From an uncultured Gammaproteobacteria bacterium (lineage in GTDB: Bacteria > Patescibacteriota > Patescibacteriia > UBA11705): 64,000 nt of DNA. The notes under the pieces are model-generated. The model worked only from the letters and a program-made list of their open reading frames with translations. It was not told the DNA's origin and ran no database searches. Both the position numbers and the translations under genes were made by a program. Below are positions 1,635-55,096 of this stretch, piece by piece. The stretch covers positions 4,398 through 68,397 of the forward strand of contig CAYPSS010000005.1 in the NCBI GenBank assembly GCA_964413735.1, written 5' to 3'. The number at the start of each line of letters is the position of its first letter. Position 1 is the first letter of the stretch.

Positions 1635-4301
1635 TTATTTTTCTGTTTGGTGTCTGGCAATAAAATAATATTTAACCGCCTCAATTAGCATGACATTGAA
1701 AATGCCAAGAGCAACAATCATCGGCCAAACGGAAAATGGTAATGGAACAGTCCCCAAAAGTTTATTGAAAATAGGTATATAAATACCGGCAATTAAACTT
1801 ACCAAACCAAATAACCAAGCACTCAGTAAAATTTTATTATCAAAAATATTAATTTGCCAAATGTTTTTCCTCAAGCTTTTACATGAAAATACATATAACA
1901 AAGCACTAATTGTTAAGCATGTAAAGATTATAGTTTGGATATAATCTAACGATAAATCACTACTCAAAAGAATATAAAACAAACCGAATAATAATAAATT
2001 AGTAATCAATCCCACCGCCAAAATCATAACTTTCATTTCATTATTCAAAAGCGGGGCTTGATTGGAATGAGGAGGACGATTCATACTGCCGATTTCCCTT
2101 TTTTCAAATGACAAAGCCACGGCCGGCAAACTATCTTCAATCAAATTGATCCATAAAATTTGGACCGCTGTTATCGGCAGTGGTAAACCCAAAATTATGC
2201 TGCCACTGATTAAAAATATTTCCGTAAAACTATAAGCTAACAAATAGGAAATCACTTTTCGCACATTATCAATAATGGCCCGCCCTTCTTCCACCGCTGC
2301 CACAATTATGGAAAAATCATCGGATAAAAGAACCAAATCAGAAACACTTTTCGCCACTTCAGTACCTGATCCCAAAGCCACCCCAATGTTTGCTTGTTTG
2401 ATAGCCGGCGCATCATTAATACCATCACCGGTCATCGCCACCACTTCACCTTTTCTTTGCCAAGCTTCAATGATCCGCATCTTATGTTTTGGTTCAACAC
2501 GGGCGTAAATCTTAATTTTATTTAATATTTTACTTAATTGTTTATCAGACATCTTTTCCATTTCCCAGCCTTCCAATATATTGTCATCATTTACTTTTAA
2601 CCCCAACTTATTCGCCACCGCTTTGGCCGTTAATTTATGATCACCGGTAATAATAATTGGACGCATTCCGGCGCGGAAACAAGTTTTGATCGCTTCTTTG
2701 GCTTGCGGACGAATCGGGTCCTCCAAGTAAACAAAACCCACAAAAACCAACTCAGAAACCGCTTCTTTCAAGTCAAAAGAACCAAATGTCCAGCCTGGGA
2801 TTTTTTTATAAGCCACGCCCAAAACTCGATATCCCTGCCCGGTTAATTCTTGATACTTATTCATTAATTTTTGACGCTTTTCATGATCAAGGATCTGTTC
2901 ATCATGATTGTCCTTAACATACCTTGATTTTTCCAAAATAATTTCCGGGGCACCTTTAACATAAAGAACATGATCGGCATTTTGTTTGGCATCCAAACTT
3001 ACTTTATTATCAGTAATTTTTCGTAAACTGGCGGAATATTTATAAACCGAACTAAAAGGAATTTGATCAATTTGCGGTTCAATGATTTCCAGTTGATTTT
3101 TTAATAATTCAAATTTAAGGCCCTCCATTATTAACGCCTTTTCCGTCGGCATTCCTCGCACTTCCCAATTATCTGGGTGCTCTTCGGGATTTTCCACAAA
3201 AGCTTCACTGCTTAATATTGCTTGTTTTAAAGCCAATTTTTCTTCATCATCAGAAGAAAAAAAAGTATAAATACCAGCCACGGACATTTTCGCTTGAGTC
3301 AAGGTCCCGGTTTTATCAGTAGCAATAATCGTGGTACTCCCTAAAGTTTCAGCGGCCGCCAAACTTCTAACCAAGCCTTTTCTTTTTAAAATTCTTTGCA
3401 TCCCCAAAGCCAAAATCACCGTCATGGCAATTGGCAATCCTTCGGGAATAGACGCTACCGCCAAAGCAACCACCACCGTAAACATTTCGATAAAATCACC
3501 TCCCATTAACATTCCGCGAAGAAAAACAAATAAACAGATTAAACCAATGACAAGCACTAACCATTTTGAAAATTTGGCAATCTTCTGTTGATACGGTGTT
3601 TGTTCTTCCGTAGCATTGCGTACCAAATCTGTCACTTGACCAATCTCCGTATTACTTCCTGTCGCCACAATAATGGCGCGTGCCCGACCATCCTCAATCG
3701 CCGTTCCCATGTAAACCATATTATCTCGATCCGCCAGTGGTGTTTCGCGAGATAAAACATCCTCTTTTTTGGTGGCCGGTAACCATTCTCCGGTTAAAGC
3801 CGATTCATTAACCTTTAGATTATGACACTCAATTAACCGAGCATCTGCTGGGACCTTATCGCCTGCACGTAATAATACAATATCACCGGGAACTAAATCC
3901 TCAACCAGAACTTGTTTTTCGTGATTATCACGCACAACAATTGCTTGAACACTCAAAACTTTTTTTAATTCTTGTAATGCTTTGGAAGATTTACTTTCCT
4001 GAATAAACCCAACAAAACTATTTAATAATACGGCCAAGAAAATTACAATCGCATCGGTGTATTCTTTGAAGATAATAGTGATAATCCCGGCTAAAATCAA
4101 AATGTAAATCAAAGGACTTTTAAATTGCATTAAAAAAATCATTACTTGCGACAATGATTTTTCTTCCGGTAATTTATTAAAACCATATTTTTTCTGACGA
4201 TTCTTCACTTCTTGATTTGTCAAACCAACCAAATTATCAGAATTCAGGTTTTTTATCACTTCCTCTGAACTGAGATTATGCCATTTTGCTTTAATTTTCA
4301 T
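1635..4301 (-). CDS. P-type cation-transporting ATPase (P2-type Ca2+/Mg2+ ATPase family)
   Basis: 888 aa. It has the DKTGTLT phosphorylation motif, a TGDGINDAPAIKQANIGVALG hinge motif, the N-terminal cation-ATPase domain and about 10 TM helices. Confidence 0.9.
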   Translation of the reverse strand: MKIKAKWHNLSSEEVIKNLNSDNLVGLTNQEVKNRQKKYGFNKLPEEKSLSQVMIFLMQFKSPLIYILILAGIITIIFKEYTDAIVIFLAVLLNSFVGFIQESKSSKALQELKKVLSVQAIVVRDNHEKQVLVEDLVPGDIVLLRAGDKVPADARLIECHNLKVNESALTGEWLPATKKEDVLSRETPLADRDNMVYMGTAIEDGRARAIIVATGSNTEIGQVTDLVRNATEEQTPYQQKIAKFSKWLVLVIGLICLFVFLRGMLMGGDFIEMFTVVVALAVASIPEGLPIAMTVILALGMQRILKRKGLVRSLAAAETLGSTTIIATDKTGTLTQAKMSVAGIYTFFSSDDEEKLALKQAILSSEAFVENPEEHPDNWEVRGMPTEKALIMEGLKFELLKNQLEIIEPQIDQIPFSSVYKYSASLRKITDNKVSLDAKQNADHVLYVKGAPEIILEKSRYVKDNHDEQILDHEKRQKLMNKYQELTGQGYRVLGVAYKKIPGWTFGSFDLKEAVSELVFVGFVYLEDPIRPQAKEAIKTCFRAGMRPIIITGDHKLTAKAVANKLGLKVNDDNILEGWEMEKMSDKQLSKILNKIKIYARVEPKHKMRIIEAWQRKGEVVAMTGDGINDAPAIKQANIGVALGSGTEVAKSVSDLVLLSDDFSIIVAAVEEGRAIIDNVRKVISYLLAYSFTEIFLISGSIILGLPLPITAVQILWINLIEDSLPAVALSFEKREIGSMNRPPHSNQAPLLNNEMKVMILAVGLITNLLLFGLFYILLSSDLSLDYIQTIIFTCLTISALLYVFSCKSLRKNIWQINIFDNKILLSAWLFGLVSLIAGIYIPIFNKLLGTVPLPFSVWPMIVALGIFNVMLIEAVKYYFIARHQTEK

Positions 4302-4352
4302 GGGATTATAGTTATTTATTTTATTATAACATATTAATTACCACAAAAAAAT

Positions 4353-4392
4353 AAAAAAAGACGAATTTTCATTCCTCTTTTTTTATGGCTCG
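4353..4392. repeat. 40-bp direct repeat, copy 1 (aaaaaaagacgaattttcattcctctttttttatggctcg)
   Basis: An exact second copy lies at 4585-4624. Each copy ends in '..atggctcg', which resembles the first bases of the tRNA-Gln 3'-end att core (ttggctcgggga). Confidence 0.8.
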
Positions 4393-4521
4393 GGGACCCC
4401 GCACCGCTAAAGCTATTGCGGGGCAAGCAGGGTTCGAAGCCCTACACATCTCAAAGTGGTTTGATGCTATCCCAGAAAATTCAACAAAAGAAAAACCTCC
4501 ACGTTCAAGTGAAGATTTTTC

Positions 4522-4543
4522 TTTGGCTCGGGGACAGGGATTC
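4522..4543. repeat. attL-like 22-bp direct repeat of the tRNA-Gln 3' end (tttggctcggggacagggattc)
   Basis: Exact 22/22 match to 13417-13438, which is the 3'-terminal 20 nt of tRNA-Gln (minus strand) plus 2 flanking nt. The flanking bases on both sides differ between the two copies. Confidence 0.8.
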
Positions 4544-4584
4544 CCCGTAACAAGTACGGGGTAAACTTCTCATCCCTGGTATAT

Positions 4585-4624
4585 AAAAAAAGACGAATTT
4601 TCATTCCTCTTTTTTTATGGCTCG
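4585..4624. repeat. 40-bp direct repeat, copy 2
   Basis: Identical to 4353-4392. The two copies bracket the att-core copy at 4522-4543. Confidence 0.8.
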
Positions 4625-4740
4625 CTTGGAGGGACGCCTTTCGAACTTATGATTGGCGCAAGGCATTCCCTGTGCCAGAATTAGCTTTACAACAGATTAA
4701 CCACCTGTGCAGTTTAGCATAAGCTCTTAACTAACATCCT

Positions 4741-5292
4741 ATGCCAAAAGTAGCACAAAGCATTTTCGATGAATATGAAAAATACTACGTCGAGCAAGGA
4801 ATGACCTTGCAGGATGTTGCTTTGGAGTTTGGGCTAAACTACGGTTCTTTGCGCCAGTATTCAATGAAACAGAAATGGTCGGAGAAACAGAAAGAATACA
4901 GGGAAGCAACTCACAAAAAGCTAACACAAATCACTCAAATAAGAATAAACAAAGAAGCTGAGACACTGGATCACAAAAATCTGCGCCGTGCCGTGTATTG
5001 GAGGGCTTTCCAATCAAGCATAATGGATATGTTGGATGCACGTTCTGACGAGCTTAAACCGCAAGAAATAGCTGTTCTTGCAAGTGCCTTTGAGAAGGCC
5101 TGCCGTGGCGAACGTCTTGAAGATGGTCAGGCAGTCGAGATACACAAGGTAGAAACTCCAATTAAGCCCGATGCTGAATGCGCTATGATGGAAGAATATG
5201 AGATGCGCCTATTAAGACAACGGGGAGAAATTAAGAAACTTTCTGACGTGTTAGTAAAAAATAAAATTGATGGGTATTACAAAAATATCTAA
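4741..5292 (+). CDS. Phage terminase small-subunit-like / HTH DNA-binding protein
   Basis: 183 aa. The N-terminal ~60 aa (..QGMTLQDVALEFGLNYGSLRQYSMKQKWSEKQKEYRE) resemble the HTH + basic region of Terminase_2-type small subunits, and the rest is predicted helical/coiled. The similarity is weak. Confidence 0.35.
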   Translation: MPKVAQSIFDEYEKYYVEQGMTLQDVALEFGLNYGSLRQYSMKQKWSEKQKEYREATHKKLTQITQIRINKEAETLDHKNLRRAVYWRAFQSSIMDMLDARSDELKPQEIAVLASAFEKACRGERLEDGQAVEIHKVETPIKPDAECAMMEEYEMRLLRQRGEIKKLSDVLVKNKIDGYYKNI

Positions 5293-5312
5293 AAAACGGC
5301 TTAACGGCCGTT

Positions 5313-5810
5313 TTACTTTTTATAGGGATTTACAAAGGGACTGAAAGGTCTACCAAAATATAATGATAATTTATGACCGAGCCAGTGTCGCCCCAAATCG
5401 TTCAAACATTGTATTCTTTTGTCTTTATCAAGCACGCTTCTCGGCAATGATACTATTCTAGTAAAATCAACATAACTTGCTGGGAAAACACCTTCTTCTG
5501 GCAAGAAAAACCAATATCCATATTTTTGATCTGCCAATTGTGCAAGATCCACCTTTATTTGAGTTTGTTCAAGTTCTTCTACTGTGAGGACAGGGGCAAA
5601 AATTAAAAAATTGCGATTTTTGGGATTGTTAATATCGCAACTCTGGTTAAGAAGCATCATAGTCCGGCTCTGAACGTTGAATATGGACTTGGTTTCGGTT
5701 GCTCCGATTGGGTCAGGTGTAATTATAAAAGGAAGATCTTTTACTATATCACCCTGCAACCATTCATTTGTTGGAAGGTTGCTTGCATACATATAATTAC
5801 TACGTAGCAA
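5313..5810 (-). CDS. Hypothetical protein, last gene of the R-M/protease operon
   Basis: 165 aa with no recognisable motif. It overlaps the upstream 76-aa gene by 11 nt, so it is translationally coupled. Confidence 0.45.
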   Translation of the reverse strand: MLRSNYMYASNLPTNEWLQGDIVKDLPFIITPDPIGATETKSIFNVQSRTMMLLNQSCDINNPKNRNFLIFAPVLTVEELEQTQIKVDLAQLADQKYGYWFFLPEEGVFPASYVDFTRIVSLPRSVLDKDKRIQCLNDLGRHWLGHKLSLYFGRPFSPFVNPYKK

Positions 5811-6030
5811 GACCTAACTTTTTATAATAAGTATCCCAATCCTTAGGCGTTAAATCCTCCGGTTCTTTCTCGATTATTTCAGTCGCATAAACTTCACTGA
5901 TATCAGTAAAATGGACATTTGAGTATTGTTCTGTGGCAGTGAACTCTATGCCAGTTTGTTTAGCTTGAAAAACTTTTTTTTGAGTTTTTTCGTCTACTGG
6001 TTGAGCTTTGCAACTTGTTGAATATAACAT
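5800..6030 (-). CDS. Hypothetical small acidic protein (76 aa)
   Basis: Its stop lies 2 nt after the start of the downstream gene, and its start lies 1 nt after the SDH-protease gene stop. It is operonic. Confidence 0.4.
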   Translation of the reverse strand: MLYSTSCKAQPVDEKTQKKVFQAKQTGIEFTATEQYSNVHFTDISEVYATEIIEKEPEDLTPKDWDTYYKKLGLAT

Positions 6031-6031
6031 A

Positions 6032-6997
6032 TTATTCCCACTTATTATAGAAATTATGTATATTGAAATTAGGTAAAGGTGAATTACCGGGTAATTTCAT
6101 TACTTTATATTTCGAAACAAATTGGTCGGACAATTGTTCGCTCTGGATAATAGCTCTCGTTAAAGAGAAATCCTTTTCAACTTTGTTGCCAAGGAAATCA
6201 GCGGGGTTAAACTCATCATCGAGTTGTAAGATTTTTTTATAATGCATCATTAAATCGTTAATCAGCTTATCGTCTTTTGCATATTCGATTATGTCTCCAA
6301 AACCAATTTCATTTTTGGCTTCTTTTCGGTTGATTAAGTGTTCGTGAGAATATAATTTCTCTGTCAAATGATCGGTAATTTCCTTTAATTGTTTTTCTGT
6401 ATGATGATCTTGGTGTAATTTTAGCATTTGCAAAGACAATCTTCGTATCAGATGATGTGTTCTATTTATGGATCCGAGTATCTTTGGAGGTATGTGCTGG
6501 CTTAATTGATTTAGCACTTCTGTAAGAGAGTTTTGTTCAGCCAAGCCAATCTTTGACTTTGCAAACTCAATATAACCCAAAATATCTTCAATAGGTATTT
6601 GATCCTGTTTGTTTTCACCCATATTATATACACCTATTGGATCTATCGGCGAAAGCTGACTGTATGGCGTCATAATAATCCGGTCTGCCCCGAGGCATAT
6701 AAGGGTAGCGGCACTTAACGCCAAATGAGGAACAACAATTTCGAGTTCGTCGCAGTATTCCCTTATAAGATTAACTAATGGCCAAGGTGTATCTAAACGC
6801 CCTCCCTTACTGTAAAGAAATAGCGTAATCTTTTTTTGTTTTTTGATTTTTTGTAAGTGCTTATAAAAGATAGGCACTATATCCAATGCGATTTGAGTGT
6901 GAAAGTTCGGTTGCTTGTCTCCTGTGATATAAACAATAACCTTGCTTCCTCTCTCTTTTTCTAATTTTTTAATTAGATTTTCTATAATTTTTGACAT
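6032..6997 (-). CDS. SDH/S49-family ClpP-fold serine peptidase (SppA / phage-prohead-protease-like)
   Basis: 321 aa. The N-terminal ~140 aa carry the ClpP/S49 signature block 'YSKGGRLDTPWPLVNLIREYCDELEIVVPHLALSAATLICLGADRIIMTPYSQLSPIDP' (G-G..., a serine in an S-A-A-T-L context, then a '(A)D-x-I-x-M.P.S..PIDP' tail). This is as in Pfam SDH_sah / Peptidase_S49. A helical C-terminal extension of ~170 aa follows. Confidence 0.55.
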   Translation of the reverse strand: MSKIIENLIKKLEKERGSKVIVYITGDKQPNFHTQIALDIVPIFYKHLQKIKKQKKITLFLYSKGGRLDTPWPLVNLIREYCDELEIVVPHLALSAATLICLGADRIIMTPYSQLSPIDPIGVYNMGENKQDQIPIEDILGYIEFAKSKIGLAEQNSLTEVLNQLSQHIPPKILGSINRTHHLIRRLSLQMLKLHQDHHTEKQLKEITDHLTEKLYSHEHLINRKEAKNEIGFGDIIEYAKDDKLINDLMMHYKKILQLDDEFNPADFLGNKVEKDFSLTRAIIQSEQLSDQFVSKYKVMKLPGNSPLPNFNIHNFYNKWE

Positions 6998-7049
6998 ATT
7001 AGATTATTATATCCCTATATAATTATTATATTATAATGATAAAAAGACA

Positions 7050-8189
7050 TCAATCGCCAGCTTCGTCGTTTTCAAACTCCTCAAAGGAGCCGATTTTAGT
7101 GAAATCTATATCGTATTTTTTCTCTCCGACTTTGTAAATCACAACGCTGTCGACGCCTATTTCTTCCAGTTTTTCATAAGTGAGAAGCTCTCCTTCTTTT
7201 AAGTCGAAGATTTCCCTCAACAGCCACTTGCCAAGATCTGCGTTATGCTTGCTCATAAGCGCTTTGGAACCGTCTTGGCACACTTTTGCCTCCATCTTTT
7301 CTCCATTTGGCAAAAGCAATTCAAAATGAGTGTCTCTCGGAGGAAAGAAATCGGGGAAAGATCTGTGTAGCCACGCAGGGATAGGAATATAAACTTCGTT
7401 CGGATCTCTTGGGCGTCCGGATGCATTCCACTGATTAAGCCCGCTCTTTTCCGGAACATTCTTTTCACCGCCACGCATAGAATAAAGTGGAAGAAAAATA
7501 TGCGCCTGTTTCTTTATCGGTGCAAACTCTAATTTTTTAGCAACAGTAGCAAACATTCTTTCTAATTCAGAGAAAGGATCTTCCAGTATAGCTACTGACA
7601 AATCGAGAGCGACTTCTGGGGTTATAAATCTTTTATACAGGGTGCTTTTAGCAACATTAAAAGCATATTCATTGATGCCGTCGGTAAATGCTATTGTATT
7701 TCCGTTTGAAAGTTTTATGCGTGATATTTTATCAATCGCTATTCTGTCCATCGGAGTTTCATATACAAGTATGTTTTTTGGCTTTCTCGTGACGCAGTGA
7801 TAAATGATGTCGTTCAACCCAAACATTCTTTTGGTAGTATCTATTCTTTTATTGCGCATCTCTGCGATTTTTACGATCTTTTTTTCAGGATCAAGATGGC
7901 GGAATAAAGAATGCTCGCTGTTGAACTCGGCCACTTTCTGCATTGTGGCGCCGTTTTTTTCAAGAAATGTTTTTACGCCGATGCCGAGTTTGTCTTTTGA
8001 TGCATCTGCCGAACAGTCCGTGCGTGAAAGGTTCTCTGCATCAAACGCTTTGCAGAATAGATTTTCAGCAACCCTATAAGCAATATAAGGTTCATTGCTT
8101 TCTGAAAAAAGGCGTGAGAGCGAACCTATTGTTTCCAGCATCTTTGCGTAGTAGGTTTTGCTCGCTGTTTTTTGTGTTTCTATAAACAT
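7050..8189 (-). CDS. Putative Type II restriction endonuclease (partner of the adjacent C5-methyltransferase)
   Basis: 379 aa with no conserved-family motif that I can name. Its start is 2 nt downstream of the methyltransferase stop on the same strand, the classic M-R operon layout. Confidence 0.45.
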   Translation of the reverse strand: MFIETQKTASKTYYAKMLETIGSLSRLFSESNEPYIAYRVAENLFCKAFDAENLSRTDCSADASKDKLGIGVKTFLEKNGATMQKVAEFNSEHSLFRHLDPEKKIVKIAEMRNKRIDTTKRMFGLNDIIYHCVTRKPKNILVYETPMDRIAIDKISRIKLSNGNTIAFTDGINEYAFNVAKSTLYKRFITPEVALDLSVAILEDPFSELERMFATVAKKLEFAPIKKQAHIFLPLYSMRGGEKNVPEKSGLNQWNASGRPRDPNEVYIPIPAWLHRSFPDFFPPRDTHFELLLPNGEKMEAKVCQDGSKALMSKHNADLGKWLLREIFDLKEGELLTYEKLEEIGVDSVVIYKVGEKKYDIDFTKIGSFEEFENDEAGD

Positions 8190-8190
8190 A

Positions 8191-9144
8191 TTATGCTTGT
8201 ATAGCTTTCTTCATATTCACCGCAATGCGGTAAATGACCGGCACTGAAACCGAATTGCCGAATTGTTTATATAGCGCCGAGTCAGTAATGTTTTTAGGCA
8301 GTTTTATATTGGCAAACCCTTGCAATTTTGCGCATTCTTTTGGGGTTAATTTGCGGATGCCTTTTGCGTCCTTTATGATCGGAACGTTATGACCTCCCAT
8401 CCCCATATTCGCAGTAAGGGTCGGGCAAACTCCTTTTTTGTTTTCTCTAACATAAACCCTGCGCCACTGATAGACAGTGTTTTGGGATTTTATCTGTTCT
8501 TTCAGTTTATCGTATAACGGTTTGCCTTCATAGTAGTATTTTTCCGGGACGTCTTTTTCAAGAATATCTTTTATGCTTTTAGTAAGGGCGATTTTTTTTG
8601 GAAAGGAAAAAACATCATAGGATTTTTTCGACTTAAATCCAACAATATAAACACGCTCCCTGTTTTGAGGGACGTTGCCGTATTCCATTGTATTTAGTAT
8701 TTCAGTTTTGATGTGATAGCCCAGCTTTTCAAGCTCTGCTTTAATAACTTTGAAGGTGTTGCCTTTATCGTGAGAGTAAAGATTTTTTACATTTTCAAGC
8801 AAAAGTGCAGGAGGATTTTTTTCCTTCAAAATCCTGATAATATCCCAAAATAAGTTCCCACGGTTAGTATCTGAAAATCCTTTTCTATAACCTGCAATAG
8901 AAAATGGCTGACAAGGAAACCCTCCAAGAAGGACGCCGAACTTTTTAGGCAAATCGCTTGTCTTTACTTTTGTAATATCTGCAACGTGCAGTTTTGGTTC
9001 AGGAAAATTAAGATCGTATGTTATCTTGCAATTCGGTTCGAAATCATTTGCGTATAGCGTAGTGAAGCCGGCCTTCTCAAATCCTGCTCGAATACCGCCT
9101 ATTCCGGCGAAAAGATCAATGGTTGTTAAATCACTTTTTTGCAT
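8191..9144 (-). CDS. DNA (cytosine-5)-methyltransferase
   Basis: Motif I 'DLFAGIGGIRAGF', motif IV 'GGFPCQPFSIAG', motif VI 'ENVKNL' and motif X 'QFGNSVSVPVI' are all present. Confidence 0.9.
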   Translation of the reverse strand: MQKSDLTTIDLFAGIGGIRAGFEKAGFTTLYANDFEPNCKITYDLNFPEPKLHVADITKVKTSDLPKKFGVLLGGFPCQPFSIAGYRKGFSDTNRGNLFWDIIRILKEKNPPALLLENVKNLYSHDKGNTFKVIKAELEKLGYHIKTEILNTMEYGNVPQNRERVYIVGFKSKKSYDVFSFPKKIALTKSIKDILEKDVPEKYYYEGKPLYDKLKEQIKSQNTVYQWRRVYVRENKKGVCPTLTANMGMGGHNVPIIKDAKGIRKLTPKECAKLQGFANIKLPKNITDSALYKQFGNSVSVPVIYRIAVNMKKAIQA

Positions 9145-9447
9145 AATAAAAATTGGGTAAGTTTCGTGGTTATATTATACCTTGTTTAGGCCTGCATCGC
9201 AAGGCAAAATCTCATTGCAAAAAAGGCCTTGGTTTGTTATAATAATAGCGCTTACCCACAATCAATATAAATTATAACACGGGAAACGGGGTTCTGCCTC
9301 TCTTTGTCTGTTTGCGGCCAGAGATGGGGCAACAAACCTCCACAAACAGACACTCCCGTGTTTGCAACAGTGGGTAAGCAGGTTCTGCTGCCCCTTTTTT
9401 GTTTGTCTAAAAAGTCGGCGCAGTTTAATTATTAACTTATATAATTT

Positions 9448-10026
9448 ATGGCCGGCCTTTTCGCAATAATACTGCTTATAGCGTGTATTTTGCTCATCCT
9501 TGGGCTTATACAGCCCAAACTTGCCTTATACTGGGGCAAACACAAAAATCGTAAGCAAGTAGGAATAATTTACGGTTCACTCATCGCTGTATCCTTCATA
9601 GGCATCGGCATATTTGCACCTCCCGTTGAAAAAAAAGAATTGCCGAAAGAAGAAGAAAAACAACAAGTAGTTGATCAGCAAGTTCAAGTGTCCGTTGAAG
9701 ATAAACAGGAAGAACCTGAACAGATAAATCCAGAAGTAGAAAAGCTCGATGTGTGGGAGAAAATAATAATATCATTTGACGGGGGTTATTCCAAAAAAGA
9801 AATAAAAGAAAAAATGGATTTGGCAATGACCCTTTACGGGGTAGATCTTACTGATGAAAATTACAGCCGAACCGCAAGTTCGTTGATTTCTATGCGCCGG
9901 GAATATGGCTTCGAAGAAATGGAGATACTTAACTATGCAATATCTCTTTACACTCCAAAAGTTAAAATGACGTTGCCTGACGCAATCGGCATAGCAACTG
10001 CGGCTCTTGTGCAAGGAATAAAATAA
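9448..10026 (+). CDS. Hypothetical membrane-anchored protein
   Basis: 192 aa with two N-terminal TM helices, then a charged E/K/Q-rich linker and a C-terminal globular region. Confidence 0.45.
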   Translation: MAGLFAIILLIACILLILGLIQPKLALYWGKHKNRKQVGIIYGSLIAVSFIGIGIFAPPVEKKELPKEEEKQQVVDQQVQVSVEDKQEEPEQINPEVEKLDVWEKIIISFDGGYSKKEIKEKMDLAMTLYGVDLTDENYSRTASSLISMRREYGFEEMEILNYAISLYTPKVKMTLPDAIGIATAALVQGIK

Positions 10027-10101
10027 CAAAAACGCCGGCGAAAAGCCGGTTGTTTTTATACCCGATGAAAGGTATAATTATAGGCAAGAAGTGATGAAAC
10101 T

Positions 10102-10818
10102 ATGAAAGAAACAAGATCCTTTGCGCAGACACAGGAAAGATGGAAGCGCATTATCGAACACGACGTGTTCAAACACAATTTAGAGATTGTTAGGCAAGAT
10201 AAAGGCAAAATATCTTGGGCTGTTGCAGATACCCGAAAGAAACTAAATCTTTCTCCATATTGGGAGATGTTTTTTCTTCCTTTAAGTTTCGAATTAGGAT
10301 ACCCTATACCAAAAATCCGTCCGGCAGGTGCTTTGTATTTTAAGCCATTACTTGATCCAAAAACAGGGAAAATTATATACCCTGCGTTTATCTTTCCTGA
10401 AACCACAAAAAGAGATGTGTTGAGTTTTTATAAACGTTTTTGCAAAGTGAAGCGAGAAATAGGAAAAGAAGAAATACATCATCAAGGCAACTTGCCTTTA
10501 ATAAAAGCAGGAAAAGATATTATTACTCACAACTATTATTTTCAGGTTATACCGACCTCAAAGACAACACGGAAATCTATGTTAGAGGCATATTCAAATA
10601 TCTCAAAGTATTATGAGGCGTGCGGTCAAAAAGTCGTAAAAAGAAAATCGAGCAGACACGAAGAAGAATACCTTGCAAAGATGTTGTCCGAAGAAAAATA
10701 TACCTATTCTTATATAGCAAAAATTATTAACCAAAAAAGATCCAAGGATAACAGAATAGGCGTAGAAAATGTTTCATCTCTCATAAGGGGTGCAAAAAGA
10801 AAGCAAAAGAAACTCTAA
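10102..10818 (+). CDS. Hypothetical protein with a C-terminal HTH-like basic region (possible replication/regulatory protein of the element)
   Basis: 238 aa. The C-terminus '..YSYIAKIINQKRSKDNRIGVENVSSLIRGAKRKQKKL' resembles an HTH/DNA-binding tail. There is no firm family assignment. Confidence 0.4.
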   Translation: MKETRSFAQTQERWKRIIEHDVFKHNLEIVRQDKGKISWAVADTRKKLNLSPYWEMFFLPLSFELGYPIPKIRPAGALYFKPLLDPKTGKIIYPAFIFPETTKRDVLSFYKRFCKVKREIGKEEIHHQGNLPLIKAGKDIITHNYYFQVIPTSKTTRKSMLEAYSNISKYYEACGQKVVKRKSSRHEEEYLAKMLSEEKYTYSYIAKIINQKRSKDNRIGVENVSSLIRGAKRKQKKL

Positions 10819-10841
10819 AATGAACCCGCCAGAGGACTAAT

Positions 10842-11150
10842 TTGAACAATCAAAAAAATGATATGCTCATCACAGATAACGTGATGAGCTTTTTTATGAA
10901 AACAAAAATTGATGAAATTGAGTTTATTCCAGTAAAGCCCAAAAACGGCCTAATAGGTTTCGTTTCTTTTGTGCTTGATGAAAAGCTGTATTGCAGTTCT
11001 ATCGGCGTGCATACGAGGCCACAAGGCGGTATACGGCTTGTCTGGCCTCTGACAAGAACCGGAATGAAGGCAGTTTACCCGATTTCAAAGGAGCTATATT
11101 TTGAGACAGAAATTGCCGTAGCAGATAAAGTTCAAAGTTTTTTACAATAG
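10842..11150 (+). CDS. SpoVG-like protein
   Basis: 102 aa. The pattern 'IDEIEFIPVKPKNGLIGFVSFVLDEKLYCSSIGVHTRPQGGIRLVWPLTR...KAVYPISKE' parallels the SpoVG consensus (V.V.......GL.A.AS...D..F.V..I.V....GLFVAMPS.R...G...D.AHPI). Phage-borne SpoVG homologues are known. Confidence 0.4.
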   Translation: MNNQKNDMLITDNVMSFFMKTKIDEIEFIPVKPKNGLIGFVSFVLDEKLYCSSIGVHTRPQGGIRLVWPLTRTGMKAVYPISKELYFETEIAVADKVQSFLQ

Positions 11151-11405
11151 ACAGCCAAGACCGGCTTTTTAGTGGAGATCCGGGATAACAACTTAACCCT
11201 ACCGACAGTGCTTTACGCACGGGAGAGATAACTCGCTATGAAGGGCATAGCGGGGACAGATTGGCGGGCAGATCAATGTGGGAGCTACGCAGGCGTGCGT
11301 CTCCCGACCTAATCTGTTCGGCAGTTTTCTAACTTTAAGATTGTCTGCCTTACATAAGCTAATAATAGCTAAACAGGAAGTGTTTAGGGATCAAAACGCA
11401 TAAGT

Positions 11406-11618
11406 ATGACTATTGGTATTACAAAAAGTGAAAAAAATGTGCTGGGCGAGGAAAAGCCAAGAAACCACTATGATAGGCAATATCCGGCAGTAAGTTTTAG
11501 GATTGATCCAAAAACCAAGGAGATATTGCAATCAATAAAATCCGATCTTGGTAAAAGTTGGAACCAAACTTTCCTGCAACTTGCTCGTCTGTATAGCAAA
11601 AATCAAAAAGCTAAATAA
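11406..11618 (+). CDS. Small ribbon-helix-helix-like DNA-binding protein (candidate repressor or recombination directionality factor)
   Basis: 70 aa. 'AVSFRIDPKTKEILQSIKSDLGKSWNQTFLQLARLY' fits the beta-strand + two-helix CopG/Arc pattern. It lies just upstream of the integrase. Confidence 0.35.
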   Translation: MTIGITKSEKNVLGEEKPRNHYDRQYPAVSFRIDPKTKEILQSIKSDLGKSWNQTFLQLARLYSKNQKAK

Positions 11619-11633
11619 TTTTAATAAACGAAA

Positions 11634-11801
11634 ATGATCAGCCAAGCTCTAATACAAGAATTGAAGCAGATCCTCAAAGAAGAATACGGGGCTGATTTGA
11701 CTATGGAGCAAGTTTCAGAAATAGCGAACGGACAAGTCGCTTATTATCGCACGCTCGCTGAAATATACATTCGAGACAAACAAAAAATTGACAGTTCATA
11801 A
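11634..11801 (+). CDS. Small hypothetical protein (55 aa) absent from the ORF track (below its length cutoff)
   Basis: The uninterrupted reading ATG..TAA gives 'MISQALIQELKQILKEEYGADLTMEQVSEIANGQVAYYRTLAEIYIRDKQKIDSS'. It sits between the RHH gene and the integrase, with a TTGACA..TATAAT-like promoter for int immediately after it. Confidence 0.3.
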   Translation: MISQALIQELKQILKEEYGADLTMEQVSEIANGQVAYYRTLAEIYIRDKQKIDSS

Positions 11802-11858
11802 TCAAAATCTCTCCTTTAATTTAAGCAACTAATTTGATATAATTAACATAAGAAGTGT

Positions 11859-13481
11859 ATGAAACTACAAACACAACACAACCAAAAGCACTCTGTCATT
11901 TTGGCCAGAGTGTCGTCAAAAGAACAAGAAGAAACCGGATATTCTTTGCCAGCGCAGGAGAAATTGCTTCAAGATTATGCAGATAGAAAGCAGATGAACG
12001 TAAAAAAGGTTTTTTCGATAGCAGAGACAGCAAGCGGTTCAAAACAGCGTGAACAATTTTACGCTATGCTTGAATATGTCAAAAAACATAAAATCAACTG
12101 CATCCTTGTTGAGAAAGTAGACCGTCTGACAAGAAATATGCGTGATGCTCTCGTAGTCAATGAATGGATACAAGAAAATCCGAGCCACCAAGTCCATTTT
12201 GTGAAAAACAATCTTGTAGTAGACCAAAATACAAGATCCGACGATACTTTCAAATGGGACATCGAAGTTATTTTGGCAAAAAAGTATACTGCAAATCTTT
12301 CGGAAGAAGTAAAAAAAGGCCAAGAGGAAAAAATACAACAAGGCGGTTATCCTTCTCGTCCTCCTCTTGGATATAAGACAATCGGAGAAAAAGGCAGAAA
12401 GATGCACGTTATAAATCACGATATTGCGCCTTTAATCAGAAAGACCTTTGAATTGTATTCATCGGGTAATTATTCAGTAAAAGAATTAGTTAAAGTAATG
12501 AAGCGAGAGGGATTGCGAAACGAAAGCGGAAGCGAAGTTAAAAAAACTACAATGCACCGCCTTCTGACCAATCCATTTTACTACGGACAATTTAACTGGA
12601 ATGACAAGCTATGGGACGGCAAACACGAACCTATAATCACAAAGGAATTATTTGATCAGGTGAAAAGTAAACTCGAACGCAAAACTTCCAGTCCTACATA
12701 CAGAAAACATAATCCTGTTTTCAAGGCGGTTTTTCATTGCGGAGAATGTGGAAGCGTAATTAGCTGGGAAACACACAAAGGTCACTGGTATGGCTGTTGT
12801 AAGCATTACAAGCCCTGTTCTCAAAAAGGATCATTGCGGGAAGAAGATGTTGAAAAACAGCTTATGCCTCATTTTGATACGATTGCCCCGAAGAACGAAC
12901 GAGTTGTTAAGTGGCTCGAAAAAGCATTGAAGTCCGATCAAGCTGACGTCGTTGAAACCCACAACGCAAAAAAGAAAGAAATGAATGCCCAGATTGAAAG
13001 ATTGGACAGGCGTCTTGATGCAATGTATATGGACAAAATTGATCAGAAGATTGATTTGGATTATTACGAAAAGAAAAAACAGGAGTTTGAGGAGGAACGC
13101 AGTGCAATAAAAAGCGAACTCGCCAGATTGGATGACAGCAAAGCAGAATACTACGCAGTAGGAATTGCTATACACGAACTCGCACTTAAAGCGTGGAAGA
13201 TCTACAACAGCGAGAAAGCAACGATTGAAGAAAAGAGATTGCTTTTGAGCTATGTATTTTCGAACTCAACCATTAAAGAGCGAAAGTTAGCCATAAACTA
13301 CACTTTTGCCTTTGATTTTCTTCAAAATTGGATGCCGGCTGTAAATAAAACTTTCGAACCGGCAAAACTTGGCTTAACTAAAACAAAAAACACCTCTGAA
13401 AAAGAGATGTGTTCTGTTTGGCTCGGGGACAGGGATTCGAACCCCGATAGCCAGGACCAAAACCTGGAGTCCTACCATTAG
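11859..13481 (+). CDS. Large serine recombinase / serine integrase
   Basis: 540 aa. It has an N-terminal resolvase/invertase catalytic domain ('VILARVSSKEQEETGYSLPAQ', catalytic Ser), a recombinase domain, a zinc-ribbon Cys cluster (CGECGSV...CCKHYKPC) and a C-terminal coiled coil. The last ~20 codons are read from the complement of tRNA-Gln. Confidence 0.9.
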   Translation: MKLQTQHNQKHSVILARVSSKEQEETGYSLPAQEKLLQDYADRKQMNVKKVFSIAETASGSKQREQFYAMLEYVKKHKINCILVEKVDRLTRNMRDALVVNEWIQENPSHQVHFVKNNLVVDQNTRSDDTFKWDIEVILAKKYTANLSEEVKKGQEEKIQQGGYPSRPPLGYKTIGEKGRKMHVINHDIAPLIRKTFELYSSGNYSVKELVKVMKREGLRNESGSEVKKTTMHRLLTNPFYYGQFNWNDKLWDGKHEPIITKELFDQVKSKLERKTSSPTYRKHNPVFKAVFHCGECGSVISWETHKGHWYGCCKHYKPCSQKGSLREEDVEKQLMPHFDTIAPKNERVVKWLEKALKSDQADVVETHNAKKKEMNAQIERLDRRLDAMYMDKIDQKIDLDYYEKKKQEFEEERSAIKSELARLDDSKAEYYAVGIAIHELALKAWKIYNSEKATIEEKRLLLSYVFSNSTIKERKLAINYTFAFDFLQNWMPAVNKTFEPAKLGLTKTKNTSEKEMCSVWLGDRDSNPDSQDQNLESYH

Positions 13482-13492
13482 ACGATCCCCGA
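13419..13492 (-). tRNA. tRNA-Gln (anticodon UUG)
   Basis: The reverse complement folds as a cloverleaf. The acceptor stem is TCGGGGA/TCCCCGA. The D-arm is GTCT-AATGGTA-GGAC. The anticodon stem is CCAGG/CCTGG with loop TTTTGGT, giving anticodon TTG. The T-arm is CGGGG-TTCGAAT-CCCTG. The discriminator is G and CCA is encoded. Confidence 0.85.
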
Positions 13493-13535: not shown

Positions 13536-13660
13536 TGTCCACCGTAGCTTTAGCGAAGGTGGAGCTAAGTTCACCGTAGCTTTAGCGAAGGTGAAACGAT
13601 CCCTGCCTACTCGTCTCGCCACACGGACGAAGCGGACCAGCAGGCAGACCTGTCCGACAA
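13536..13660. repeat. GC-rich structured region flanking tRNA-Gln. It contains a tandem 22-nt repeat (caccgtagctttagcgaaggtg, two copies) and a hairpin element homologous to 54750-54797.
   Basis: Copies of the 22-mer lie at 13540-13561 and 13571-13592. Segment 13591-13645 (ccctgcctactcgtctcgccacacggacgaagcggaccagcaggcagac) is about 85% identical to the reverse complement of 54752-54797. Long-range pairing GGATCGT/ACGATCC encloses the whole block. Confidence 0.6.
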
Positions 13661-54749: not shown

Positions 54750-54797
54750 GAGAGCCTGTCTGCCGGTCCGCTTCGTCCGCGAAGCGAGACGAGCAGA
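54750..54797. repeat. GC-rich two-tier hairpin (CCTGTCTGC-cggtc-CGCTTCG-tccg-CGAAGCG-agacga-GCAGACAGG), homologous to 13591-13645 in reverse complement
   Basis: Perfect nested inverted repeats seen in the sequence. About 85% identity to the tRNA-Gln-flanking element. Confidence 0.6.
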
Positions 54798-54875
54798 CAG
54801 GGACTTCCTTCGCTTCACTCAGGATAAACTTTTCGTCCTATTATGTGTATTCCTATTATTATTCAATAATGGTGC

Positions 54876-54905
54876 CCAGGAGAGGACTCGAACCTGGAAC
54901 TCCAC
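54876..54905 (-). other. tRNA 3'-end-like fragment (CCA/discriminator/acceptor 3' strand/T-loop, no 5' half): candidate att remnant
   Basis: The plus strand 'tggtgcccaggagaggactcgaacc' is the reverse complement of a canonical tRNA 3' terminus (GGTTCGAGTCC TCTCC TGGGCA CCA). No matching acceptor 5' strand or anticodon arm follows. It abuts the left boundary of duplicated segment B. Confidence 0.5.
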
Positions 54906-55096
54906 GTTAACAGCGCAGTGTTATACCAATTTTACTATCAGGGATTAATATAAATAAAACAACCGGCTTCTACGCCGGCCTTTTGTTATCTAGATCAAAC
55001 AAAATAACCAAGCCGACGCTAACCGGTTATTATTATTATTTGATTTGATCACTCTGATTATCATATGATTGCATTATAGCATACTTTGAATAAAAT
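54904..55096. repeat. Duplicated non-coding segment, copy B (part 1)
   Basis: Matches 51463-51660. Confidence 0.8.

Follow-up and report, generated by a model that had tools for sequence, protein, structure and literature searches.

An 8.8-kb island at the 3' end of a tRNA-Gln gene in a Patescibacteria genome, and a family of large serine recombinases with the attachment site inside the integrase gene

The window examined here, meaning the whole stretch of 64,000 nucleotides that was analyzed, comes from a CPR/Patescibacteria genome and carries, at ~4618-13425, an island of 8.8 kb at the 3' end of a gene for tRNA-Gln(UUG). A first-pass annotation of this DNA had placed an accessory segment at this tRNA end together with a serine, rather than a tyrosine, recombinase, and this description stands with the true size set at ~8.8 kb. 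The tRNA gene was correctly located (ARAGORN and Rfam both call tRNA-Gln(ttg), the latter at 57.9 bits), as were the flanks, a P-type ATPase versus cupin/pyrG; the order found is P-type ATPase, then DUF5362, cupin, a CoA-binding protein and pyrG. The features of the locus are as follows (LSR, large serine recombinase).

4351-4386, no strand: host palindromic terminator T1, copy 1, beside the ATPase promoter region; first part of a 42-bp repeat (4351-4392)
4386-4475, minus: decayed full-length tRNA-Gln pseudogene, beginning TGGCTCGGGGAC (alignment score 38)
4487-4524, minus: T0, a terminator-like hairpin that follows the 22-mer fragment on the minus strand
4522-4552, minus: 22-mer (4522-4543) extending to a 31-nt copy of the tRNA-Gln 3' end with a 4-nt T-loop deletion
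4583-4617, no strand: host terminator T1, copy 2, read as B arm of attL and displaced native terminator of tRNA-Gln (42-bp identity with 4351-4392)
4618-4624, plus: attL core TGGCTCG, being CCA, discriminator and tRNA positions 72-70 in antisense (junction anatomy)
4621-4722, plus: 3' end of the LSR gene, separated from the gene body; 33 codons (LAWRDAFRTYDWRKAFPVPELALQQINHLCSLA) and a stop (blastx E 4e-9)
4741-5292, plus: 183-aa protein with N-terminal HTH and weak small-terminase/DNA-binding similarity only (PHROG E ~3e-4)
5313-6030, minus: two small proteins downstream of the protease gene, 165 aa (matches phrog_4575, unknown function) and 76 aa
6032-6997, minus: SDH-type Clp-fold serine protease, 321 aa (PF01972 4e-13; phrog_11747 3e-41; NCBIfam Clp_like_SDH)
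7050-8189, minus: NgoFVII-like type II restriction endonuclease (PF20731; PADLOC REase_II 3e-109)
8191-9144, minus: C5 cytosine DNA methyltransferase of the restriction-modification pair (PF00145 1e-87; PADLOC MTase_II 1e-118)
9448-11618, plus: four ORFs without assigned function (192 aa, membrane-like; 238 aa; 102 aa; 70 aa)
11634-11801, plus: 55-aa helical protein just upstream of the LSR (conserved in ~45 family loci)
11859-13481, plus: LSR gene, integrated form, 540 aa (Resolvase, Recombinase and Zn_ribbon_recom domains)
13390-13410, minus: intrinsic terminator of tRNA-Gln that the element supplies; lies within the LSR ORF, in the attR P arm
13419-13425, plus: attR core TGGCTCG, in which CTC (13422-13424) is a Leu codon in the LSR frame
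13419-13492, minus: intact tRNA-Gln(UUG), target gene and B' arm

Most of the cargo had been recognized beforehand: both members of the restriction-modification pair and the ClpP-fold protease were recovered, and capsid, portal and large terminase genes are indeed absent from the island. The gene read as terS-like does carry the N-terminal HTH match, but its identity as a terminase is weak, the similarity falling in the HTH region, and neither the SpoVG-like gene nor the RHH regulator of the first-pass annotation found support in Pfam or NCBIfam. We considered a prophage or a phage satellite (PICI-like) and rejected both, as there are no packaging or hijack genes, the terS-like HTH matches are weak (~3e-4) and the best PHROG of the protease is of unknown function. 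The cargo, with its type II restriction-modification pair, its Clp-like protease module and its genes of unknown function, suggests a defence-type island. The 102-aa ORF is shared by the window and two related loci (L080 and L076). Excision by an LSR needs a recombination directionality factor; the 55-aa protein, which has no relatives in Pfam or PDB, is a candidate for such a factor or for a regulator.

As had been noted, the LSR reads through the tRNA gene, which its ORF overlaps by 63 nt. The protein matches PF00239 (4e-20), PF07508 (1e-17) and PF13408 (3e-5), carries the RVSS..Q active-site motif with R17, V18, S19, S20 and Q23 in invariant columns of a 26-sequence family alignment, and retains every family-invariant residue. 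Its conserved body ends near ..NKTFEP (~residue 505), the remainder being read from the terminator hairpin and the antisense tRNA-Gln. The 120 nearest homologues, which are 50-57% identical to it, derive from CPR bins, and a search of GTDB species genomes gave 331 relatives; the enzyme belongs to a large, apparently undescribed group with its docking site inside the integrase gene.

The left end of the island has a more complicated anatomy than had been supposed. The 22-mer TTTGGCTCGGGGACAGGGATTC does exist in exactly two copies, at 4522-4543 and 13417-13438, where 100 shuffles lead one to expect none, and its left copy does reproduce the tRNA-Gln 3' end exactly; the right copy takes in 2 nt past the tRNA and runs through the encoded CCA and the discriminator G into the acceptor stem (7 nt), the T-stem (5 nt) and the T-loop (4 nt). 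Overlooked earlier was that the tRNA 3' end recurs here in three partial copies, of 12 nt (4386), 22 nt (4522) and 7 nt (4618), and that a 42-bp sequence is present in two exact copies only, at 4351-4392 and 4583-4624. The first copy of this 42-bp repeat lies in host DNA, as a relative (L081) is 99.1% identical to the window up to 4382. The second copy leads directly into the junction at 4618-4624, where host terminator, TGGCTCG and an attP-type half-site follow one another in the manner of an LSR junction. The 22-bp repeat had been taken for the attachment-site duplication; it lies ~75 bp outside the real left junction, the DNA to its right is tRNA-type (B'-type) with no attP-type half-site, and it is a tRNA-Gln pseudogene or relic fragment, not an LSR attachment site.

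Directly behind the left core, and on the LSR strand, lies a tail-coding segment that matches the C-termini of five family LSRs in blastx (P0056, P0020, P0038, P0057 and P0025). Its first ~12 codons (~4624-4650) also form the P' half-site of attP. The identity between attL and attR amounts to 7 bp in the window and to 4-6 bp (GCTC, in some cases extended by flanking bases) in most relatives, the family-wide core being GCTC, at 4620-4623 here. The pairing of a serine integrase with a ~20-bp duplication, earlier regarded as an anomaly, therefore dissolves, since an identity of 4-7 bp is what is expected of an enzyme with a 2-bp crossover. The real peculiarity is a whole LSR clade that has specialised in tRNA 3' ends and has its attP within the integrase ORF. 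A further signature is found in the spacing of the motif TTCGAAC, which was counted on the tRNA and P' arms, with the left arms inspected by eye only: it lies 11 nt from the core in 23/24 tRNA arms (as in the T-loop of the window tRNA-Gln) and 16 nt from it in 24/28 P' arms, the window included. In LSR sites generally, a zinc-ribbon-domain motif of 7-8 bp is common to attB and attP half-sites and stands 5 bp nearer the centre in attB (Rutherford 2013, PMC3783163), and the 11 versus 16 nt observed here fit this shift rule.

The same arrangement recurs across the family. The LSR ORF ends inside a tRNA gene (Asn, Gln, Asp or Arg) in at least 49 of 79 species-level loci; in 37 of the 79 it stops inside a convergent tRNA called by ARAGORN, and 12 further loci abut tRNA-Asn genes with a group I intron, which Rfam confirmed in 8/8 tested. 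In the window and in ~25 loci, a tail-coding segment is found 6-11 kb upstream of the LSR, on the LSR strand. What precedes it is each time a host hairpin followed by 4-7 bp of tRNA-end sequence. JGI metagenomes yielded five more tail-type attL junctions. The detached tail is present in ~30 loci, always in frame, and all 33 homologous tails lie in LSR orientation. The core CTC falls in LSR frame 0 at 36/37 attR sites and the attL side always reads CTC-GCN-TGG; as such, the fused products align without gaps to contiguous LSRs (e.g. P0056). A hairpin and A-run equivalent to 13390-13410 are present in all relatives. The tail itself is under purifying, protein-level selection in the family (pN/pS 0.16 in codons 1-12, where pS is only 0.25, and 0.41 in codons 13-33, where pS is 0.77); AlphaFold2 gave no confident structure for it. 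Contiguous P-core-P' genes occur on four contigs without a tRNA (L088, and L089-L091 from three samples), for none of which could circularity be demonstrated. The design with attP inside the integrase gene is thus family-wide in CPR/Patescibacteria.

These observations lead us to read window ~4618-13425 as an integrative island that was inserted by its own LSR at the extreme 3' end of tRNA-Gln, an enzyme of a CPR-wide clade whose attP lies inside the integrase gene, and we put the probability of this reading at roughly 85%. The attP would occupy the last ~50 integrase codons, with a P arm made of codons that also form the intrinsic terminator hairpin, a core GCTC(G) equivalent to tRNA positions 74-71 in antisense, and a P' arm formed by the first ~12 codons of the conserved 33-aa tail; the crossover dinucleotide would be CT or TC within GCTC. 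On integration, the CCA, the terminator and the final few nucleotides of the tRNA would be exchanged for element copies, and as the element supplies its own versions of all three the tRNA would stay intact. Because the docking site lies inside the integrase gene, the same event would detach the last 33 aa of the enzyme, carrying the tail codons 8.8 kb away to attL beside the displaced host terminator; the integrated ORF continues across the antisense tRNA until it meets a stop by chance. On excision the two parts of the gene would be joined again, with a product of 554 aa. The junction anatomy, the conserved frame, the 5-bp motif shift, the selection on the tail at protein level and the fused forms in other loci are direct observations; that this copy is still mobile, which dinucleotide exactly is exchanged, what the 55-aa partner does and whether the tail swap has any functional effect are inferences. 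The excised circle is expected to read ..GTTCTGTT-TGGCTCG-CTTGGAGGGAC.. (formed at the 7-bp core, it would carry TGGCTCG-CTTGGAGGG) and the island-free junction T1-TGGCTCG-GGGACAGGG.

Several points count against this reading. The left junction is untidy, with a duplicated terminator and two tRNA-Gln relics; B arms vary between hosts and are not conserved, which is unusual for an LSR attB; and in three loci (L003, L038, L077) a fused-type gene stands within a chromosomal contig, a situation that calls for tandem arrays or some other explanation. In most tRNA-Gln-type relatives no tail was found within the 10 kb available. An unoccupied attB or an excised attP of the window island was not found, the related-strain contigs breaking before the tRNA. 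The first-pass annotation had proposed that an empty site should show the ATPase directly next to tRNA-Gln; the ATPase flank of a 99%-identical relative continues into other genes, and the right-flank contigs break at repeats before reaching the tRNA.

The earlier model, in which the element spans 4544-13416 between the 22-bp repeats, with exchange in or near the T-loop and an attP carrying 20 nt of the tRNA 3' end, appears to us very improbable. The repeat is exact (22/22) and in the right orientation, and two relatives (L021 and L047) also have 18-20-nt copies of the tRNA end upstream; however, the long identity in L021 is the P' arm itself resembling a T-arm, the L047 copy lies ~97 nt outside the tail-coding junction just as the 22-mer lies outside it in the window, and a repeat of at least 11 bp is absent in most relatives. 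Furthermore, the DNA right of the 22-mer contains neither an attP-type half-site nor codons of the tail, and in a circle closed at that point the LSR would terminate at ..DSP*. The P' half-site, which is in frame and shows the motif at 16 nt, is found at 4618-4650, preceded by an exact host-terminator copy. The 22-mer and the other tRNA-end copies may be attL relics of earlier occupants (e.g. a tyrosine-integrase island with a T-loop crossover) in an accretion hotspot, and not decayed tandem tRNA-Gln paralogues, a possibility that we regard as somewhat doubtful. Tyrosine-integrase tRNA islands typically show such an extent (22 nt, reaching from the 3' end into the T-loop), and the T0 region, with its hairpin left of the 22-mer, is 72% similar over 58 nt to the element-type terminator region at 13381-13438; against this, no second integrase or island body is left, and the ~94 nt between successive cores equals one terminator-plus-tRNA unit. 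Moreover, 4386-4475 aligns to the whole of tRNA-Gln, with a 27-nt GC-rich hairpin insertion at 4399-4425 and a score well above shuffled sequences (mean 17.7, sd 3.7, maximum 34), and is therefore a pseudogene copy rather than a displaced 3' fragment; L081 has an 88% copy of it.

Insertion by the LSR could also have been terminal, the tail-less enzyme being inactive ("suicidal" integration as with SSV-type integrases) and the locus now merely inherited. The lack of any empty site or circle, the recurrence of the junction in a second sample and the loss from the integrated ORF of a tail that the family keeps under purifying selection are all compatible with such a fixed remnant. We nevertheless think it improbable, given that all element ORFs are intact, the detached tail included, that the core repeat and P' arm are canonical, and that the locus L080, from another sample, has a 97%-identical LSR at the same tRNA-Gln with a different internal gene, pointing to recent mosaic exchange inside the element. 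Detached tails are conserved family-wide, which implies that the fused state is passed through often. Under the preferred reading of an LSR-inserted island, this copy may still be mobile. It is conceivable, if rather unlikely in our estimation, that the position of attP provides a built-in directionality switch, in which the fused 554-aa enzyme, made from the excised circle only, would be integration-proficient and the tail-less integrated form excision-prone, or inactive until the 55-aa partner helps. Were this so, the state of recombination would be recorded in the recombinase's own C-terminus, and serine recombinases would have their own version of the archaeal SSV strategy, one that is widespread in CPR bacteria.

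SSV-type tyrosine integrases of archaeal viruses and plasmids have an attP within the ORF, and their integration into a tRNA gene partitions the integrase gene (PMC7253208). The likeness to the window family (attP inside the ORF and a split gene, in ~30 split arrangements in frame and four fused) is one of mechanism, not of membership: the enzymes are unrelated, tyrosine versus serine recombinase, and whereas integration leaves the SSV gene as two pseudogenes, both inactive, the window family loses only the last ~33 of ~550 codons and keeps an intact catalytic body. With the LSRs of phages and ICEs (A118/LI, Bxb1, phiC31, SPbeta) the family shares its domain architecture, the short att identity around a central dinucleotide and the 7-bp motif shifted by 5 bp between attB and attP half-sites. 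It differs from them in targeting tRNA 3' ends, in a P arm that also serves as terminator of the target tRNA, in its CPR host, and in an attP wholly inside the integrase ORF, such that the C-terminus of the protein differs between excised and integrated states.

Islander-type islands and tycheposons resemble the window island in abutting an intact tRNA gene, restoring the tRNA 3' end and carrying defence-type cargo, but the window island lacks a tyrosine integrase and shows 4-7 bp of identity in place of a displaced fragment of 15-50 bp. No ORF of at least 50 aa between 4385 and 13481 matched Phage_integrase, on which an Islander-type assignment turns, and the 22-mer was rejected as an Islander-type boundary (a displaced tRNA fragment at the distal end) because it lies outside the junction that carries the recombinase half-site. 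Among tycheposons, 27/937 have an LSR, and Mageeney et al. 2020 described the use of tRNA genes by serine integrases as hitherto unreported and in need of proof. SCCmec/Ccr elements offer a parallel in that there, too, an LSR integrates at the very 3' end of a conserved host gene, which is not inactivated; in contrast to the window family, their ccr genes have an internal position and stay whole on integration. The SCCmec/Ccr target is the protein-coding gene rlmH. The best named NCBIfam match of the window LSR is CcrB, at 3e-32 and below the cut-off.

The first-pass annotation had described an integrative element bounded by a 22-bp direct repeat of a tRNA-Gln 3' end, with a large serine recombinase (LSR) reading through the tRNA. 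The repeat itself is real: the 22-mer, TTTGGCTCGGGGACAGGGATTC, occurs exactly twice (4522-4543 and 13417-13438), where none is expected by chance, and its right copy takes in, besides 2 nt beyond the tRNA end, the encoded CCA, the discriminator base, the 3' strands of acceptor stem and T-stem, and 4 nt of T-loop. The read-through is equally clear, the last 63 nt of the LSR frame being tRNA antisense. The two genes that meet at this end are:

11859-13481, plus strand: LSR, 540 aa, with Resolvase, Recombinase and zinc-ribbon domains
13419-13492, minus strand: tRNA-Gln(UUG), called by ARAGORN and Rfam

As a boundary of the island the 22-mer had to be given up, for its right flank is of tRNA type and lacks the features of P' (P and P' being the element arms of the att sites). 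On the left side the tRNA 3' end is partially copied three times: as TGGCTCGGGGAC (4386), as the 22-mer (4522) and as TGGCTCG (4618). Exactly at the third copy, which is preceded by a copy of a host terminator, begins a segment (4621-4722) that encodes LAWRDAFRTYDWRKAFPVPELALQQINHLCSLA and then a stop. When 4300-4760 was compared with the LSR set by blastx, this segment proved homologous (E 4e-9) to the C-terminal end of those LSRs, a minority, that have a long tail (P0056, P0020, P0038, P0057 and P0025). The same layout, a host hairpin, then a 4-7-bp tRNA-end copy and then the tail-coding segment (DNA consensus GCTCGCTTGGAGGGACGCATTTCGAACTTTTGATTGG), recurs at ~25 genome loci, on the strand of the LSR and 6-11 kb upstream of it; a metagenome pattern scan added five JGI contigs with this attL layout and gave no attP. 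Most relatives of the tRNA-Gln type, with 10 kb available, have no detectable tail.

Identity between attL and attR extends over 7 bp in the window and 4-6 bp in most relatives. The T-loop motif TTCGAAC is separated from the GCTC core by 11 nt in 23 of 24 tRNA arms and by 16 nt in 24 of 28 element arms, that of the window included. This 5-bp difference is the signature of Rutherford et al., by which attB has its zinc-ribbon-domain motif 5 bp nearer the centre than attP does (PMC3783163), and it marks the tRNA as attB and 4618-4650 as a half-site of attP type. Within the P arm a TTCG-containing hairpin loop stands, by eye, at a roughly symmetric distance, which points to CT (or TC) within GCTC as the probable crossover dinucleotide; a crossover in the T-loop, first inferred from the repeat edges, was dropped once the P' arm was found. 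In the respects tested, the enzyme and its sites are those of a serine integrase.

In 36 of 37 attR sites the core CTC, antisense to tRNA positions 73-71, falls in frame as an LSR codon, and the attL side always reads CTC-GCN-TGG, with TGG encoding the tail's conserved Trp. As the frame is kept on both sides, the joined halves give uninterrupted proteins of ~545-560 aa, which align gap-free with contiguous long-tail proteins; the predicted fused product of the window has 554 aa (..EKEMCSVWLAWRDAFRTYDW...SLA, then a stop). The fused arrangement of P arm, core and P' arm, with no tRNA, is found on contigs of relatives, in which a circularity test detected no terminal overlap:

L088, 11.7 kb: fused form, with methylase, SLFN/AlbA and ART as cargo
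L089-L091: fused form, the same LSR in three samples, adjoining Prim-Pol

Just upstream of the latter LSR, Prim-Pol (752 aa) is accompanied by a 52-aa protein (L089 7427-9685, L090 1827-4085, L091 1193-3451), and this cargo suggests episomal replication of some members.

What the sequences show directly is the anatomy of the junctions, a split that keeps the frame, the 5-bp shift of the motif and the recurrence of these features across the family, fused forms included. From these it is reasonable to propose that the excised circle would have attP inside the integrase frame (predicted junction ...AAGAGATGTGTTCTGTT-TGGCTCG-CTTGGAGGGACGCCTTTCGAAC...), to be recombined with an attB predicted as ...TTCATTCCTCTTTTTTTA-TGGCTCG-GGGACAGGGATTCGAACCCC.... 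On integration, element copies would take the place of the tRNA's last nucleotides, its CCA and its terminator, and the 33-aa tail would be detached, to be restored by excision. Extra tail copies, and fused-type genes inside chromosomal contigs, occur in some relatives. These loci, with two tail junctions or a fused-short-tail LSR in a chromosomal contig, are not predicted by simple attP x attB chemistry and suggest tandem or nested islands:

L003: 548-649, 1168-1254, 11507-11641
L038: 1603-1686, with tRNA-Asn at 2446-2518
L071: 53-151, 645-743
L077: 3929-4027, 11564-11614

Tails are open in 33 of 33 cases, all with a stop at equal distance from the core. Among 13 gap-free tails, codons 1-12 (the P' arm) have a pS of 0.25 and a pN of 0.04, which shows constraint on DNA as well as on protein; codons 13-33 have a pS of 0.77 (saturated), a pN of 0.31 and a pN/pS of 0.41. 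By these comparisons the tail is selected as protein and is more than a binding site, and since its coding is constrained and open throughout, the fused form must be expressed often enough for selection to act. An AlphaFold2 model of P0056 is confident for the LSR body and uninformative for the tail (residues 503-556, pLDDT < 50). In ~45 loci a conserved 55-aa protein is encoded upstream of the LSR; it is a candidate directionality factor, and profile searches of PDB and Pfam gave no relatives for it.

Related proteins of the window LSR number in the thousands, the closest 120 at 50-57% identity, and a GTDB scan with one genome per species gave 331 relatives, for which 79 loci were fetched. 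At 37 of the 79 the stop codon of the LSR lies within a tRNA gene of convergent orientation (Asn-GTT at 21, Gln at 13, the others Arg and Asp). At 12 more the frame reaches the 3' half of a tRNA-Asn split by a group I intron (confirmed by Rfam in 8 of 8 tested), and 9 are truncated at contig ends. The peptide K.K...F....P..LLRG(W)DSNP, which looks like a conserved C-terminus, results from translating an A-run, a terminator hairpin and the antisense of the tRNA's acceptor and T-arm; in the window a terminator is called at this hairpin on the minus strand (13410-13390), immediately downstream of the tRNA. A scan of viral_contigs gave three close relatives only, all at contig ends, and hence no sign of phage nature.

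A direct-repeat search of the tRNA end in 37 relatives found a long repeat in L021 and L047 only. This first suggested larger elements and afterwards led to the short-core model; long tRNA-end copies are almost never present within 10 kb upstream in relatives. The 22-mer is neither required for the LSR reaction nor made by it. Its left copy reaches 31 nt if a 4-nt T-loop deletion is allowed, and 4386-4475, minus a 27-nt GC-rich hairpin insertion, aligns with the entire tRNA-Gln (score 38; shuffles: mean 17.7, sd 3.7, max 34). Successive tRNA-end cores are ~94-138 nt apart, and in L047 a comparable fragment lies outside attL, at a distance of ~97 nt. It is simplest to suppose that several tRNA-Gln copies in decay, or older att relics, form a short array upstream of the active gene. 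A perfect direct repeat of 42 bp (4351-4392 and 4583-4624) is made up of the palindromic terminator T1 and, after it, ATGGCTCG. T1 is host DNA, since the related-strain contig L081 (ATPase protein 100% identical) matches the window at 99.1% DNA identity up to 4382. Past 4382, L081 (1-2936 against window 4346-4436) has a 2.9-kb segment encoding a radical SAM protein, a methyltransferase, a NUDIX protein and guanylate kinase, then a second T1 and TGGCTCGGGGAC; this segment between T1 copies does not occur in the 64-kb window.

A search for an empty site found none: L081 on the ATPase flank diverges at 4382, and right-flank contigs (L097-L100) end at GC-rich repeats near 13610-13624. No excised circle of the window's island was found. 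GC-rich palindromic REP-like repeats (4399-4425, 13537-13593, 13600-13660 and 54755-54801; for example CACCGTAGCTTTAGCGAAGGTG, in two copies, and the hairpin CCTGTCTGCCGG..CAGACAGG) flank both tRNA genes of the window, and related-strain assemblies end at them. GC content has no step, and the GC-skew change at ~4.5 and ~14.5 kb tracks gene orientation.

Between the 22-mer copies lie, as annotated, a C5 methyltransferase paired with an NgoFVII-like type II restriction enzyme and an SDH/Clp-fold protease, together with several ORFs without known function; a tyrosine integrase is absent. The proposed terS-like gene encodes an HTH protein with only weak similarity to small terminases, and the SpoVG-like and RHH regulator labels found no support. 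PADLOC matched solely the restriction-modification pair, the protease module not being among its listed defence systems. Housekeeping genes occupy both flanks. The LSR and the ATPase have their homologues in bins of the Candidate Phyla Radiation (CPR)/Patescibacteria, so that the host is a CPR bacterium; exact-protein look-ups (DUF5362, LSR, cupin, CoA-binding protein, pyrG and P0241) returned nothing on record. The island may still be mobile, judging from its intact parts and from a mosaic relative (L080) at the same site.

When large cargo is to be inserted into genomes, serine integrases are the principal tools. The mobile elements of CPR/Patescibacteria are poorly known, and the islands are a first defined integrative family for this group, with restriction-modification and other defence genes as cargo. 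Because attP is written in the integrase gene and attB is a tRNA end, att sites can be read straight from sequence, and a clade of this size (331 matches in GTDB species genomes, thousands of proteins) supplies many natural attP/attB/integrase triplets from one architecture, as well as an example, open to test, of an integrase with a C-terminal end that varies with recombination state. Annotators should note that the C-termini of these integrases are artefacts of tRNA read-through, the true 3' end lying kilobases upstream. That serine integrases naturally use tRNA genes has counted as unreported or unproven (PMC7192596); Mageeney et al. (2020) found such use rare (14/297, 'not reported previously'), and 27 tycheposons bear an LSR. 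Full-text literature searches gave no CPR LSR clade at tRNA genes and no serine integrase split by its own attP. With respect to an attP placed within the integrase gene, the nearest functional analogue is the archaeal SSV-type 'suicidal' tyrosine integrase (PMC7253208), which belongs to an unrelated enzyme family and whose gene is inactivated by the split.

Group I introns (Rfam RF00028, 58-81 bits) occupy the tRNA-Asn anticodon loop in many CPR genomes, and as ARAGORN misses such genes, tRNA-adjacent islands are under-counted:

L014: 2912-3236
L016: 11595-11902
L049: 5351-5602
L050: 10726-10969
L062: 1663-1954
L065: 3692-3950
L067: 11597-11884
L072: 11579-11804

The window's own tRNA-Asn(GUU) (54870-54944) ends ..GGGCACCA, with a core of GTGC versus the family's GCTC, and is unoccupied though tRNA-Asn is the family's commonest target. 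LOOT RNA motifs (RF03000, above gathering score) are present upstream of the LSR and may belong to the islands (L050 2959-3081, L049 1694-1812, L067 7725-7840, L065 1-103). Finally, LSRs of the clade occur on contigs binned as archaea (L061, L078, L027 and L051; Methanodesulfokora, Methanoperedens, Pacearchaeota and Woesearchaeota), reflecting either misbinning or a host range that reaches archaea.
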